A stretch of 4,000 nt of DNA from a virus (taxonomy: Duplodnaviria; Heunggongvirae; Uroviricota; Caudoviricetes): the IMG/VR virus record IMGVR_UViG_2711768018_000015; one strand, given 5' to 3'. The notes below the pieces were generated by a model. That model had not been told where the DNA came from. It worked only from the letters and a program-made list of their open reading frames with translations, and did no database searches. The position numbers and the translations under genes were made by a program. Below are positions 123 to 4,000 of the stretch, piece after piece (positions within the stretch are counted from its first letter, which is position 1; each line of letters opens with the position of its first letter).

Positions 123-323
123 ATGCTGCGTCATGCTGAACAACTCGAAAAAACGGGCATAACAAAAGACGCTATCCGTAAAGATATGGTACCCGCGCTT
201 CGGGAACTGATGCAGGCGAAGCATCGCGCACAGAAAGCAGTAGATGAGCTGGTGGACTGTGTGGCAGAGCTGGAAACCAGAGTCGGAAAGTTTGAAAAAC
301 TGGTGCAGGAGGTGCTGCGCTGA
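123..323 (+). CDS. Hypothetical small phage protein (66 aa from ATG 123; alternative GTG start at 81 gives 80 aa), predicted helical and charged
   Basis: Open frame 81-323 begins after an in-frame TGA at 21-23. ATG 123 has AAGG 8 nt upstream, while GTG 81 has no SD. The stop TGA (321-323) overlaps the rusA ATG (323-325), and AGGAGG at 308-313 inside this ORF serves as the rusA RBS. No family recognised. Confidence 0.45.
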   Translation: MLRHAEQLEKTGITKDAIRKDMVPALRELMQAKHRAQKAVDELVDCVAELETRVGKFEKLVQEVLR

Positions 324-697
324 TGCGCCATGAGTTTATTTTACCTTATCCGCCGACGGTGAATACTTACTGGCGACGTCGTGACAACACATATTTTGTA
401 TCAAAAGCCGGTGAGCGTTATCGCCGGGATGTGGCGCTTATTGTCCGTCAGCAGCGACTGAAATTAAGCCTGTCCGGAAGACTGGCGATAAAGATTATTG
501 CAGAGCCACCGGATAAGCGCCGTCGTGACCTGGACAATATCCTGAAAGCACCACTGGATGCACTGACACATGCGGGAGTGTTAATGGACGATGAGCAGTT
601 TGATGAAATCAATATCGTTCGTGGTCAGCCAGTATCTGGTGGACGTCTGGGGGTGAAGATTTACCCCATAATGCATGAAGAGCAGGTCAAAAAATGA
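323..697 (+). CDS. rusA: Crossover junction endodeoxyribonuclease RusA (Holliday-junction resolvase), lambdoid prophage type
   Basis: The 124-aa product has the acidic motif ...PPDKRRRDLDNILKAPLDALTHAGVLMDDEQF..., which closely resembles E. coli DLP12 RusA (…DRRRRDLDN…DAL…DD…) as I recall it. Strong SD AGGAGG lies 9 nt upstream. The position immediately upstream of a Q-like gene is typical of lambdoid nin regions. Confidence 0.9.
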   Translation: MRHEFILPYPPTVNTYWRRRDNTYFVSKAGERYRRDVALIVRQQRLKLSLSGRLAIKIIAEPPDKRRRDLDNILKAPLDALTHAGVLMDDEQFDEINIVRGQPVSGGRLGVKIYPIMHEEQVKK

Positions 698-1548
698 AAC
701 TGGAAGATTTACCGAAATACTACTCCCCAAAATCCCCTTGCCTGACCGATGCATCGGCCTCAACGTCAAAAGATGCGCTGAGTATCACTGATGTGATGGC
801 CGCGCAGGGCATGACACAGAATCGGGCTGAGATGGGGTTTTCTGCGTTCCTGGGGAAAATGGGCATCAGTATGAATGACAGGGCGCGGGCAACAGAATTA
901 CTGGCAGATTATGCACTCAGTCGGTGCGATCGTGTGGCGGCGTTGAGAAAACTTCCGGCAGAAATAAAACCGGTAGTGATGCGCATTATGGCTTCGTACG
1001 CTTTTGAGGATTATGCCCGCAGCGCAGCGAGTAAAAAGCAGTGCCCTTGTTGCTATGGGGAAAAATTTATTGAAAGCGTAGTTTTTACAAACAAGGTCCA
1101 GTATCCGGATGGTAAGCCGCCGGTATGGGCAAAGTGTACGAAAGGTGTGTATCCGTCTTACTGGGAAGAATGGAAAAAAGTCAGGGAGGTGGTAAAAGTT
1201 GCCTGTCCGGAGTGTGGCGGAAAGGGTGAGGTTTCCACCGCCTGTAAGGATTGCCGTGGGCGTGGTGTCGCCATTCATCGTGAAGAGTCGGTAAAACGTG
1301 GTATGCCTGTTATCAGAGACTGCCAGCGTTGTGGTGGTCGTGGCTATGAAAGACTACCATCAACGGAGGCATTTAATGCTATATGCGAGGTGACAAACCA
1401 GATAACACGCGCGTCATGGGAAAAAACAGTTAAGAAATTCTATGATGCGCTGGTGACTCGGTTTGATATTGAAGAAGCATGGGCTGAGCGGCAGTTAAAA
1501 AAGGTAACTAGGTTGATTTTTCCGGAATCTGTGGTAAATTCGTCATAA
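694..1548 (+). CDS. Putative late-gene antiterminator (Q-like) with cysteine-rich DnaJ-type zinc-finger repeats
   Basis: 284-aa ORF whose start overlaps the rusA stop by 4 nt (ATGA at 694-697). It contains three canonical CxxCxGxG motifs (CPECGGKG, CKDCRGRG, CQRCGGRG) and one degenerate copy (CPCCYGEK). The functional call rests on synteny (rusA, this gene, candidate promoter, tRNA) and on recollection that large zinc-finger Q-type antiterminators exist in E. coli prophages; it is not verified. Confidence 0.6.
   Translation: MKLEDLPKYYSPKSPCLTDASASTSKDALSITDVMAAQGMTQNRAEMGFSAFLGKMGISMNDRARATELLADYALSRCDRVAALRKLPAEIKPVVMRIMASYAFEDYARSAASKKQCPCCYGEKFIESVVFTNKVQYPDGKPPVWAKCTKGVYPSYWEEWKKVREVVKVACPECGGKGEVSTACKDCRGRGVAIHREESVKRGMPVIRDCQRCGGRGYERLPSTEAFNAICEVTNQITRASWEKTVKKFYDALVTRFDIEEAWAERQLKKVTRLIFPESVVNSS
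1513..1541 (+). promoter_or_regulatory. Candidate sigma70 late promoter (PR'-like) overlapping the 3' end of the Q-like gene
   Basis: -35 TTGATT (1513-1518), 16-nt spacer, extended -10 TGgTAAATT (TG at 1532-1533, hexamer 1535-1540). The predicted start is near 1547, at the Q stop codon. In lambdoid phages PR' and its Q-utilisation site lie directly downstream of Q. Most of the transcribed region is N-masked. Confidence 0.35.
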
Positions 1549-2203: not shown

Positions 2204-2255
2204 CAATTGCCTTCTAAGCAATCGGTCACTGGTTCGAATCCAGTACAGCGCGCCA
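2179..2255 (+). tRNA. tRNA-Arg (anticodon UCU), 5' portion masked; visible part is 2204-2255
   Basis: Seen directly: anticodon stem ATTGC/GCAAT (2206-2210 / 2218-2222) around the 7-nt loop CTTCTAA (2211-2217; U33, anticodon TCT, A37). A 5-nt variable loop CGGTC follows. The T-arm is ACTGG-TTCGAAT-CCAGT (2228-2244), then acceptor 3' strand ACAGCGC, discriminator G and CCA (2253-2255). The start at 2179-2180 is back-calculated from standard tRNA numbering. Confidence 0.8.
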
Positions 2256-2392
2256 TATTCATTCTTCCAGATTCCTTCCGGCAGAGCCTTATACTGAAAT
2301 ATACCTGGCTCAGGATATTGTTGAAAATATTTTATGTTTGTCAAAAATAAAAGTTCTGTTAAGTATTGATTGAGTGTTTGTTATACGGTCTA

Positions 2393-2719
2393 ATGGTTTT
2401 TTCAGCATTAAATATTTATCATTCATATGGTGTGGGTAGAGTGAATATTGATGAGGCGTCGGGGTGTTTCATCCTTAGGCAGCGTATTGATATAGTCAAT
2501 GCAGCACGAGCAAAGGCCTTCAGCCGTTTGACAGTTTTGTTCTGTACTCCTGATCGTCTTTCGGGAAGAGACGTTATTATTCTGAATAGTGATGCTATAC
2601 AGAGGGTTTGCGATGAGTTCATGGTTGCTAATTCAGAATTATTTGCTCTTGTTCAGGAGTACAACAGAATAGCCAGGACCTGTGGTATGGATGAACTTCG
2701 GATTACTCATCTGGGGTAG
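2393..2719 (+). CDS. Hypothetical cargo protein (orphan ORF A, about 92-108 aa depending on start), rich in rare codons
   Basis: Open frame 2366-2719. Possible starts are ATG 2393 (no SD) and GTG 2441 (weak GGTG/GGG upstream); none is strong. Of 11 Arg codons, 6 are AGA/AGG; of 10 Ile codons, 3 are ATA. The composition is protein-like. It lies 110-185 nt downstream of tRNA-Arg(UCU), in the position stxA occupies in Stx phages. No homolog recognised. Confidence 0.4.
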   Translation: MVFSALNIYHSYGVGRVNIDEASGCFILRQRIDIVNAARAKAFSRLTVLFCTPDRLSGRDVIILNSDAIQRVCDEFMVANSELFALVQEYNRIARTCGMDELRITHLG

Positions 2720-2822
2720 ATACATATCTGGATTATCACCTGTTACGGTAAAAAGTGATTGCTTACTGTTTTTGTGAATGGCATTGCAGCAGCCGGATAA
2801 TGTCAGTGCTGGCTGACGGTGT

Positions 2823-2830
2823 GCTGGTGG
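2823..2830 (+). other. Chi recombination hotspot octamer 5'-GCTGGTGG-3'
   Basis: Exact match to the E. coli Chi sequence on the + strand, inside a GT-rich stretch (2806-2850). Confidence 0.6.
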
Positions 2831-3110
2831 CGGGTGTGGTGGTTGTTGCTTTCCCGTTGCTGAAAAAGAAAACGCCAGACTGTTAGCCGGGTATCAGTTA
2901 GCGGGAGAAATTTTTAAATACTTCACAATTCAGGCGGTTGACTGTTGTCTGGTTTGCGGGGAGTTTGTTAAAAGAAACTGGCATGGTGAATCCCCCTGTG
3001 CGGAGGGGCAATCAGCGAGTAGGTATATGGGATAATCGCGGATTCAGGTGCTGGTACTGAATTCACCGGGAGGCACCCGGCACCATGCAATGGCACATAG
3101 CGCCACTCTC

Positions 3111-3140
3111 CAGCCCCTCTCCGGAGGGGCTGTTTATATT
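3111..3140 (+). terminator. Rho-independent terminator (9-bp perfect GC-rich stem, 4-nt loop, T-rich tail)
   Basis: CAGCCCCTC (3111-3119), loop TCCG (3120-3123), GAGGGGCTG (3124-3132), then TTTATATT (3133-3140). It sits tail-to-tail between the two convergent cargo ORFs. The U-tract is on the + strand only, so it is mainly a + strand terminator. Confidence 0.65.
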
Positions 3141-3166
3141 GATTTTGTCAGATGTGAGTAAACTCC

Positions 3167-3502
3167 TTATGGACTTTGTTGTTTTAGTCCATAAGGACAT
3201 ATTTGCAGAGTGCAACGGTTATTAAAGCATTCATTCAATACGTTATCTGTATTTGTAGGGCATTCCTGGCTATTTTTGATTGAATTCCAGAATGTTTTAT
3301 TGAATGGTACTACGTTGTAAATGGTTACAGGTAGCACTTTGTTATTGAGCATGATGCCTGTGTGAGTCAGTGTAAATATACTTTCAGGAGGTAAGAAAGC
3401 ATCCGATTGATACCAGATTATTAATTTTATTTTACTCCATATGACTGAAAAAGATATTCCGCATGATGGCTGGATAACTGTATCAATCACAATCCACTTC
3501 AT
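3167..3502 (-). CDS. Hypothetical AT-rich cargo protein (orphan ORF B, 111 aa) with a C-terminal Cys-x9-Cys-x4-Cys-x4-Cys cluster
   Basis: ATG at 3500-3502 (minus strand) is preceded by AAGGAA with a 6-nt spacer, a good RBS. Of 13 Ile codons, 6 are ATA, and GC content is low (I did not compute the exact value). The sequence has no obvious signal peptide. The C-terminus reads ...[27 protein letters not shown].... No homolog recognised. Confidence 0.5.
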
Positions 3503-3597
3503 TTAGTTTCCTTGTTTATGCCTTGCTGGTGATGTTCTGAAAAGTATAAATGATATTTTTGAATGTAAACCATAGAGCAGAATTATTTTTCTGATGT

Positions 3598-3611
3598 TGT
3601 TTATTGTTTAT
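3598..3611. repeat. Tandem direct repeat TGTTTAT x2 within an AT-rich divergent intergenic region
   Basis: TGTTTAT at 3598-3604 and 3605-3611. Further GTTTAT copies occur at about 3514, 3626 and 3645. The significance is unknown and may simply reflect AT-richness. Confidence 0.3.
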
Positions 3612-3762
3612 TTAAATGCAGGGTGGTTTATATCTCGTCTTGTAGTTTATCCATGCATATCTGCTTGATAATCAGGTTTTTATTTAAGGTATGGTTTTGT
3701 GTTTTTTCTGTATTACATGTCAGGTATTTTAAAGAATTATTTTTCAGATGGTGGAAAGAACC

Positions 3763-3936
3763 ATGGCATTTAAACACTATGATGTTGTCAGGGCGGCGCC
3801 GCCGTCAGATCTTGCGGAAAAGCTGACACATAAACTGAAAGAGGGCTGGCAGCCGTTTGGTAGTCCGGTGGCCATAACCCCTTATACCCTGAGGTGTACT
3901 GGCAATAGCGGACACTACCATTTGTTCTTTTTTTAA
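3763..3936 (+). CDS. Small conserved phage protein, DUF1737-like by recollection (57 aa from ATG 3763; alternative ATG 3748)
   Basis: Product MAFKHYDVVRAAPPSDLAEKLTHKLKEGWQPFGSPVAITPYTL... resembles my memory of small proteins found upstream of lysis cassettes in E. coli prophages. ATG 3763 has a GGTGGAAAG SD-like element upstream; ATG 3748 has none. The C-terminal tail ...RCTGNSGHYHLFFF looks atypical. Confidence 0.5.
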   Translation: MAFKHYDVVRAAPPSDLAEKLTHKLKEGWQPFGSPVAITPYTLRCTGNSGHYHLFFF

Positions 3937-4000
3937 GCAGCCATCTGATGATATTTTTCCCTGAAGGCTGCCGGGGAGATATTCCCCAGACGAGAGTGAC

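Follow-up and report, generated by a model that had tools for sequence, protein, structure and literature searches.

The stx-equivalent slot of a lambda-like prophage as a probable mosaic of iraL, the small RNA STnc100, a DUF3927 gene and an unannotated protein family

A 4,000-nucleotide stretch of Caudoviricetes DNA (IMG/VR record IMGVR_UViG_2711768018_000015; hereafter the window) contains, at positions 2256-3747, a segment that a sequence-only reading had presented as an uncharacterised cargo cassette consisting of two convergent open reading frames (ORFs), A and B, and the spacer between them. The present analysis gives a different picture. With high confidence, the window represents the late-regulatory region of a lambda-like Escherichia coli/Shigella prophage of the CFT073 “potB-island” type, and the flagged segment, rather than being one cassette, combines four distinct elements in a mosaic: ORF A, a gene of the DUF3927 family, the small RNA (sRNA) STnc100 and the anti-adaptor gene iraL, which is ORF B. 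As a whole, this locus was known before, as it comprises the published iraL region, a catalogued sRNA and a Pfam gene. The remaining novelty lies in the unannotated ORF A family and in STnc100 as a junction of the moron slot. Over positions 2204-3892, the window shares 99.6% identity with a prophage of E. coli 042, and the locus, scored at ≥80% coverage of window 2204-4000, occurs in 862 of 5,426 complete E. coli genomes. The segment had also been placed in the slot equivalent to that of stx, between the Q/tRNA genes and the lysis genes, and this placement is correct on account of the flanking gene order: RusA, Q, PR' and the tRNAs, including tRNA-Arg, lie upstream, whereas a DUF1737 gene and then, in relatives, holin and lysozyme genes lie downstream.

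ORF B, for which the coordinates 3167-3502 on the minus strand were exactly right, encodes the 111-residue IraL, an RssB anti-adaptor of the IraM family. Its residues 1-110 match NF007393 with 162 bits against a cutoff of 121. The statement that neither ORF could be assigned to a family thus fails for B, which belongs to a well-characterised one, and is half right for A, which falls into an uncharacterised phage family (phrog_2873, of unknown function). The window protein is identical at 110 of 111 positions to IraL of CFT073 (WP_000871291.1, c1429, from the potB-island prophage) and shares 61% identity with K-12 IraM, whose structure (PDB 8TWD) was matched at E=6e-31. The frame is intact in all 57 copies. 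In CFT073 and Shigella sonnei, IraL has been found to be functional, binding RssB and stabilising RpoS against ClpXP; with the CFT073 protein, RpoS was seen to accumulate during growth. Transcription of iraL is driven by a promoter of the sigma-70 type (Hryckowian et al., 2014, mBio, PMC4045071). Given its 99% identity to the CFT073 protein, the IraL of the window would be expected to bind RssB and stabilise RpoS as well. A supposed action of AppY through IraM was discarded as wrong.

The expression signals of iraL can also be located in the window. The sequence published from 5' RACE, ACATCACCAGCAAGGCATAAACAAGGAAACCA, agrees at 31 of 32 positions with window 3504-3535 read as the reverse complement, which places the iraL transcription start site (TSS) at window 3535. 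The region 3503-3569 on the minus strand accordingly comprises a 5' untranslated region (UTR; 3503-3535), a -10 element TATACT (3543-3548) and a -35-like element TTTACA (3564-3569). Expression of iraL is responsive to loss of Fur and to 37 °C. Because iraL lies on the opposite strand and possesses its own promoter, its expression does not depend on the Q-antiterminated transcript, and the claim that cargo of the slot is carried on that late transcript does not hold for it. By contrast, ORF A, the DUF3927 gene and STnc100 lie on the late-transcript strand, 3' of PR'/tR' by position. At its other end, iraL carries a 12-bp hairpin over the stop codon (3163-3198, minus strand; -17.5 kcal/mol, z -5.4), which is followed by the tract UUUACUC, a weak U-run. 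This hairpin possibly represents a 3'-end or terminator structure of iraL.

The interval between the two ORFs had been described as a GC-rich, hairpin-dense spacer with a tail-to-tail intrinsic terminator. It is not a spacer, as it holds two known elements. The first, at 2755-2886 on the plus strand, is a gene for a small single-pass membrane protein of 43 amino acids (WP_000562553.1) that matches PF13064 (DUF3927) with 95.6 bits against a cutoff of 25 (E=1.7e-27). Direct reading of the protein gives one hydrophobic span followed by KKK. The gene is annotated in 042 and CFT073 by the Prokaryotic Genome Annotation Pipeline (PGAP), is intact in 79 of 82 copies and directly precedes the holin gene in Citrobacter-type prophages. 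The second, at 2952-3141 on the plus strand, is the prophage sRNA STnc100, which gives a full-length match to RF02076 (model positions 1-206; 132.4 bits against a gathering threshold of 47; E=4.4e-30). The hairpins noticed earlier are internal stems of this RNA. Its intrinsic terminator (3111-3132, plus strand) consists of a 9-bp GC-rich stem followed by UUUAUAUU (-20.3 kcal/mol, z -3.4) and is the only canonical intrinsic terminator of the region. Thus, a canonical terminator is indeed present; it belongs to STnc100, and since the hairpin of iraL is separate from it, the term “tail-to-tail” is only loosely accurate.

Upstream of the STnc100 model, a conserved block extends to about 2910, and both this block and the terminator are conserved among seven copies. 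The conservation of the block suggests that STnc100 has a promoter of its own and forms an autonomous unit. In a Stx-phage-like prophage of strain O178:H19 (L006, NZ_CP024289.1; positions 5575-5787 and 7547-8526), the late strand bears five STnc100 copies: one is preceded by a TolA-like gene, and four are arranged in tandem, about 265 bp apart, between an ORF A homolog and a SASA esterase gene. Each of these copies retains the upstream conserved block and the terminator. In 042 and CFT073, PGAP places a partial “hypothetical protein” pseudo-coding sequence at approximately 2971-3096 on the minus strand, wholly antisense to STnc100; this is probably a spurious annotation artefact. STnc100 has been reported 75 nt downstream of stx2B (PMC12370729), and it overlaps the Hfq-bound sRNA EcOnc27/sRNA103, which is the stx2-linked copy and is reported to be made as a discrete RNA (PMC12711010). 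A common ancestry of STnc100 and PasD has been proposed (Zhu, Shabalina and Storz, 2026).

These assignments bear on the proposal that ORF A, the spacer and ORF B are one co-inherited, undescribed toxin, defence or virulence module on a Q-dependent late transcript. In its favour are the correct location in the stx-equivalent slot, the lack of a known function for ORF A, and the low GC content and many rare codons of both ORFs. The foreign, rare-codon-rich composition is borne out: GC content is 44% in ORF A and 34.5% in iraL, falling to 29% upstream of iraL, compared with 48-49% in the Q and RusA genes, and rare codons account for five of 10 arginines (AGA/AGG) and three of nine isoleucines (ATA) in ORF A and for six of 13 isoleucines (ATA) in iraL. 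However, ORF B encodes IraL, which has been characterised and is expressed from a separate promoter on the opposite strand, and the spacer consists of a Pfam gene and an Rfam sRNA. Furthermore, at least 16 loci lack iraL although they show 99% identity across ORF A, the DUF3927 gene and STnc100 and include several kilobases of downstream sequence. ORF A and iraL are therefore separable, and a comparison of neighbourhoods does not bear out the expectation that A, B and the spacer occur as a unit. Homologs of ORF A are also found without iraL in five other genera, and PADLOC returned no match for ORF A and only a marginal one (E=0.009) for one of nine relatives. The module proposal is already largely refuted, and it is hardly credible that it will prove correct.

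The two ORFs consequently differ in kind. iraL is real accessory cargo, being low in GC, encoded on the opposite strand and able to alter host physiology. ORF A, conversely, is not foreign cargo, because it holds a conserved late-operon position in many genera. Hence, the accessory-cargo claim stands for one of the two ORFs. How such cargo might be exchanged is illustrated by phage mEp460 (L003, mEp460_ev081), which lacks iraL and carries a TolA-like gene in its place. Homology between the window-type and mEp460-type loci breaks inside STnc100, at about window 3087, just past the closing helix. Judged by this breakpoint, STnc100 may serve as a recombination junction for cargo exchange.

On comparative evidence, ORF A is a real protein gene of 92 amino acids and the first protein gene of the late operon (2441-2719, plus strand). 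Its frame had been recognised correctly; the start had been placed at 2393, while the comparisons point to GTG 2441 as the probable start codon. In a first homolog search, only close relatives and one 56%-identical full-length homolog were obtained. With the latter as reference, the ratio of non-synonymous to synonymous substitution rates (dN/dS) was 0.27 from codon 25 (GTG 2441) onward, compared with 0.81 for the 24 codons upstream of it and 0.8-1.2 when either of the other frames was read. In the frame of ORF A, changes were enriched at third positions (43 versus 24 and 23), the frame was intact in all 84 copies, and its polymorphic sites comprised seven synonymous and five non-synonymous ones. 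A further homolog search, together with a profile search run exhaustively, then extended the family to relatives of 91-110 amino acids in Citrobacter, Salmonella, Morganella, Serratia and Xenorhabdus. Across six genera and down to approximately 21% identity, R23, N64 and N75 are invariant. Most of these relatives, distant ones included, begin at the equivalent of 2441, and diverged members possess good Shine-Dalgarno (SD) sequences (AGGAG, GGGAG, GAGG) along with nearby in-frame stop codons before the start.

These observations also decide against reading ORF A as a chance ORF in an AT-rich, non-coding late leader. That reading would account for the absence of any coding sequence annotated at ORF A by RefSeq/PGAP in 042, CFT073 and O178:H19, the three genomes inspected. 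It would also fit the GTG start of the window copy and the weak SD (GGGUAG) in front of it, as well as a tblastn search against 50,697 phage records in which mEp460_ev081 was the sole match. Yet the dN/dS values and third-position changes given above, the intact frame of every copy, the family conservation, the SD sequences of diverged members, the matches to PHROGs 2873 and 4827 and the confidently predicted fold speak for a gene. A chance origin is accordingly considered very unlikely.

With regard to family and fold, ORF A matches phrog_2873 at E=5.6e-58 over profile positions 17-108 and also matches phrog_4827, both PHROGs being of unknown function; all nine diverse relatives tested match phrog_2873 too. 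The phrog_2873 profile has a 16-residue N-terminal extension, which the comparative data suggest is not translated. None of 22 family members matched Pfam, a search of NCBIfam with ORF A gave nothing meaningful, and searches of PDB sequences with two profiles gave nothing better than E=0.056. The corresponding sub-threshold PDB match (E~0.06), which would have pointed to a GapR/UPF0335 DNA-binding identity, was rejected as unsupported. AlphaFold2 predicts a confident antiparallel two-helix hairpin with a predicted local distance difference test (pLDDT) score of 88.7, and the structural neighbours of the model are generic. According to this model, ORF A would encode a cytoplasmic helical-hairpin protein.

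The gene neighbourhoods of the ORF A family provide the main clue to its role. In Morganella, the order is Q, methylase, ORF A, holin and lysozyme. In Serratia, a Q gene of the window type is followed by tRNAs, ORF A, two small ORFs and lysozyme, and in Salmonella, Q is followed by tRNA-Thr, tRNA-Gly, ORF A, a Rha-like gene, holin and endolysin. Citrobacter and contig L009 share the order ORF A, TerB-like gene, DUF3927, holin and endolysin, and contig L090 has a Q-like gene, tRNA-Thr and ORF A. A common backbone can be recognised, running from Q through PR'/tR' and one or more tRNAs to ORF A, sometimes DUF3927, and then holin and endolysin. As homologs across Enterobacterales hold one fixed position, ORF A and DUF3927 can be regarded as conserved late-operon genes. 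The association of ORF A with tRNA genes is positional, since the tRNA species differ (Ile/Arg, Thr, Gly).

Based on gene position, a lysis-associated or late role of ORF A is weakly favoured, and an accessory role of this kind for ORF A and DUF3927 together is offered as a weakly held guess. As a tentative and rather speculative proposal, ORF A (phrog_2873/4827), possibly together with DUF3927, could be a conserved part of the lambdoid late operon that has gone unrecognised throughout Enterobacterales. It might then have a specific late function, for example in lysis timing, in late-gene expression or translation tied to the adjacent phage tRNAs, or in countering host defence.

Alternatively, ORF A and DUF3927 could be morons expressed in the lysogen, for instance regulators or connectors acting with AraC- or LuxR-type regulators, instead of late or lysis-associated genes. 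In a Stx-like variant (L005, 164-889; L006, 6164-6889), the ORF A homolog with 56% identity is directly preceded by the gene of a 241-residue AraC-family regulator, and a GerE/LuxR gene lies upstream in contig L091. One further homolog adjoins a PapB-regulated fimbrial operon on a plasmid-like contig, and the AT-rich region 5' of ORF A contains promoter-like hexamers. These hexamers, however, are no more common than in shuffled sequence (six versus 4.4 in a sigma-70 scan of the region), and no dedicated promoter is claimed for ORF A for this reason. Similarly, the AraC stop codon is separated from the conserved GTG by about 94 nt, which argues against tight coupling of the two genes, and the regulator neighbours vary from case to case, whereas six genera share the placement between Q/tRNA and holin. 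Expression as lysogen morons is thus doubtful, although less remote than a chance origin of ORF A.

The fimbrial neighbourhood just mentioned is found in three plasmid-like E. coli contigs (L092-L094). They carry an ORF A homolog of 34% identity, 580 bp downstream of a tRNA-Thr gene and flanked on one side by a PapB/K88-type fimbrial operon and on the other by cation-efflux, Rep3 and integrase genes. This copy resembles a piece of a phage's late leader that was captured at a site outside any prophage.

Several points weigh against the interpretation of the segment as a mosaic built on conserved late-operon genes. There are exceptions to the late-operon context of ORF A, namely the plasmid-like E. 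coli site beside the fimbrial operon and a Mu-like tail region in Xenorhabdus. Among close E. coli relatives, the elements co-occur because their common ancestry is recent, and such co-occurrence does not count as independent support. The PR' and STnc100 promoters are predicted from sequence, and tR' falls into the masked part of the window. The SD of ORF A in the window is weak, as stated above, and ORF A and DUF3927 are recognised from sequence, not from observed transcripts or proteins; RNA-seq tables based on RefSeq omit ORF A, and the supplements are silent on it because the gene is absent from the annotation used.

The remainder of the window conforms to the late-regulatory region of such a prophage. 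A gene for a RusA Holliday-junction resolvase (323-697, plus strand; PF05866, E=1.8e-16), also annotated in 042 and CFT073, is followed by the gene of the Q antiterminator (694-1548, plus strand; PF03589, E=7e-55), a protein of 284 amino acids with a DnaJ-type zinc-finger region that is identical to the antitermination protein of 042 at 270 of 273 positions. Relative to 042, an 8-bp deletion at window 1508-1548 removes the stop codon of Q, and the window protein is 11 residues longer as a result. The new stop overlaps a PR'-like late promoter (1513-1540, plus strand), proposed from the motifs TTGATT and TAAATT at a spacing of 16 nt; the identical sequence occurs right after Q in 042. In that strain, Q is followed by the late promoter, a strong terminator (L001, 8737-8756), a tRNA(CAU) annotated as tRNA-Ile and a tRNA-Arg(UCU).

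In the window, a run of 614 N at 1590-2203 hides the tR' terminator, the tRNA genes and the 5' part of tRNA-Arg. ARAGORN consequently detected no tRNA in the window, the genes being masked, and the tRNAs were recovered from 042 and CFT073 instead. The 3' part of tRNA-Arg (anticodon UCU) is visible at 2204-2255 on the plus strand, with its 5' part (2179-2203) masked; it is identical to the tRNA-Arg of 042 (L001, 8976-9052) and gives a partial Rfam tRNA match. The interval from Q to tRNA-Arg is about 310 nt longer in the window than in 042, and for this reason the masked interval probably contains either one more tRNA, as is the case in CFT073, or some other insertion.

Downstream of iraL, a DUF1737 gene (3763-3892, plus strand; PF08410, E=1.5e-15) has its 3' end cut by an insertion sequence, and homology to 042 and CFT073 stops at 3892. 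K-12 ycgX is not a DUF1737 gene but belongs to DUF1398. Positions 3893-4000 are the end of an IS600 element (IS3 family), 99% identical to IS600 copies on 755 plasmids. Several related viral contigs also have this IS600 end close to ORF A, and the element is common in Shigella. In 042 and CFT073, the DUF1737 gene is followed by a small ORF, holin, lysozyme and spanin genes.

The possibility that the region is a decaying prophage remnant without current function was also considered. The DUF1737 gene is truncated by IS600 at 3892 in the window and is marked as a pseudogene by PGAP in 042 and CFT073, and the stop codon of Q has been altered by the 8-bp deletion. Nevertheless, iraL, ORF A and DUF3927 are intact in 57 of 57, 84 of 84 and 79 of 82 copies, respectively, and experiments in CFT073 and Shigella sonnei have shown iraL to be functional. 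Decay of the whole region is therefore unlikely.

If the segment is a mosaic as proposed, its parts could be combined into a simple scheme. Upon passage of tR' by Q-modified RNA polymerase, ORF A and DUF3927 would be transcribed and translated from the late transcript, and the AGA, AGG and AUA codons of ORF A would be read by the tRNA-Arg(UCU) and tRNA(CAU) encoded just upstream. STnc100 would be produced as a structured sRNA of about 190 nt with its own intrinsic terminator and possibly its own promoter. In the lysogen, IraL would sequester RssB, such that RpoS would not be delivered to ClpXP and its level would rise in growing cells. After induction, Q-modified polymerase would pass the STnc100 terminator, proceed antisense through iraL, shutting it off, and continue into the lysis genes.

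These results are primarily corrective, as a candidate for novel cargo resolves to the published iraL locus, a catalogued sRNA and a Pfam gene. At the same time, they draw attention to ORF A, a gene that is under purifying selection and missing from RefSeq in a common prophage region and that represents an Enterobacterales-wide family at a fixed late-operon position. The layout further suggests a testable switch, in which IraL raises RpoS in the lysogen and Q-dependent read-through runs antisense to iraL upon induction. Finally, the presence of STnc100 at mosaic junctions, in up to four tandem copies, bears on the exchange of stx-, iraL- and AraC-type cargo between prophages.

Among known systems, K-12 IraM (b1160, PDB 8TWD) resembles the window's IraL over its full length and belongs to the same NCBIfam family. 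The contexts differ, as K-12 iraM adjoins e14/icdC and has no STnc100, ORF A or DUF3927 beside it. According to published work, IraM is tied to magnesium starvation and binds both RssB domains, whereas IraL acts in log phase and binds the N-terminal domain only. A closer counterpart is the CFT073 locus, which shares with the window the flanks (tRNA-Arg, ORF A, DUF3927, STnc100, iraL and DUF1737) as well as the promoter and 5' UTR of iraL. Differences are found at residue 74 of IraL, which is S in the window and L in CFT073; in the DUF1737 gene, where the window carries IS600, 390 bp upstream of the iraL start; and between Q and the tRNAs, where CFT073 has an IS200 element, in addition to possessing three tRNAs.

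The STnc100 copy of the window matches the model over its full length and has the same terminator architecture as EcOnc27/sRNA103 and the related PasD sRNAs. As in the case of EcOnc27/sRNA103, STnc100 lies downstream of a moron and upstream of DUF1737/esterase and lysis genes; unlike that copy, it follows ORF A and DUF3927 and not stx2. In related Stx-type prophages, the morons of the slot are likewise flanked by STnc100 and then by DUF1737/SASA esterase genes. More generally, the slot that holds stx or other morons in lambdoid phages, Stx-converting ones included, in which Q, PR' and tRNAs precede the cargo and nanS-p/DUF1737 and lysis genes follow it, has the same backbone order, ileZ/argO-type tRNAs and DUF1737 as the region described here. 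The window departs from this arrangement in carrying no toxin gene, and its only true accessory gene, iraL, is encoded on the opposite strand and driven by its own promoter, in contrast to the Q-dependent stx.

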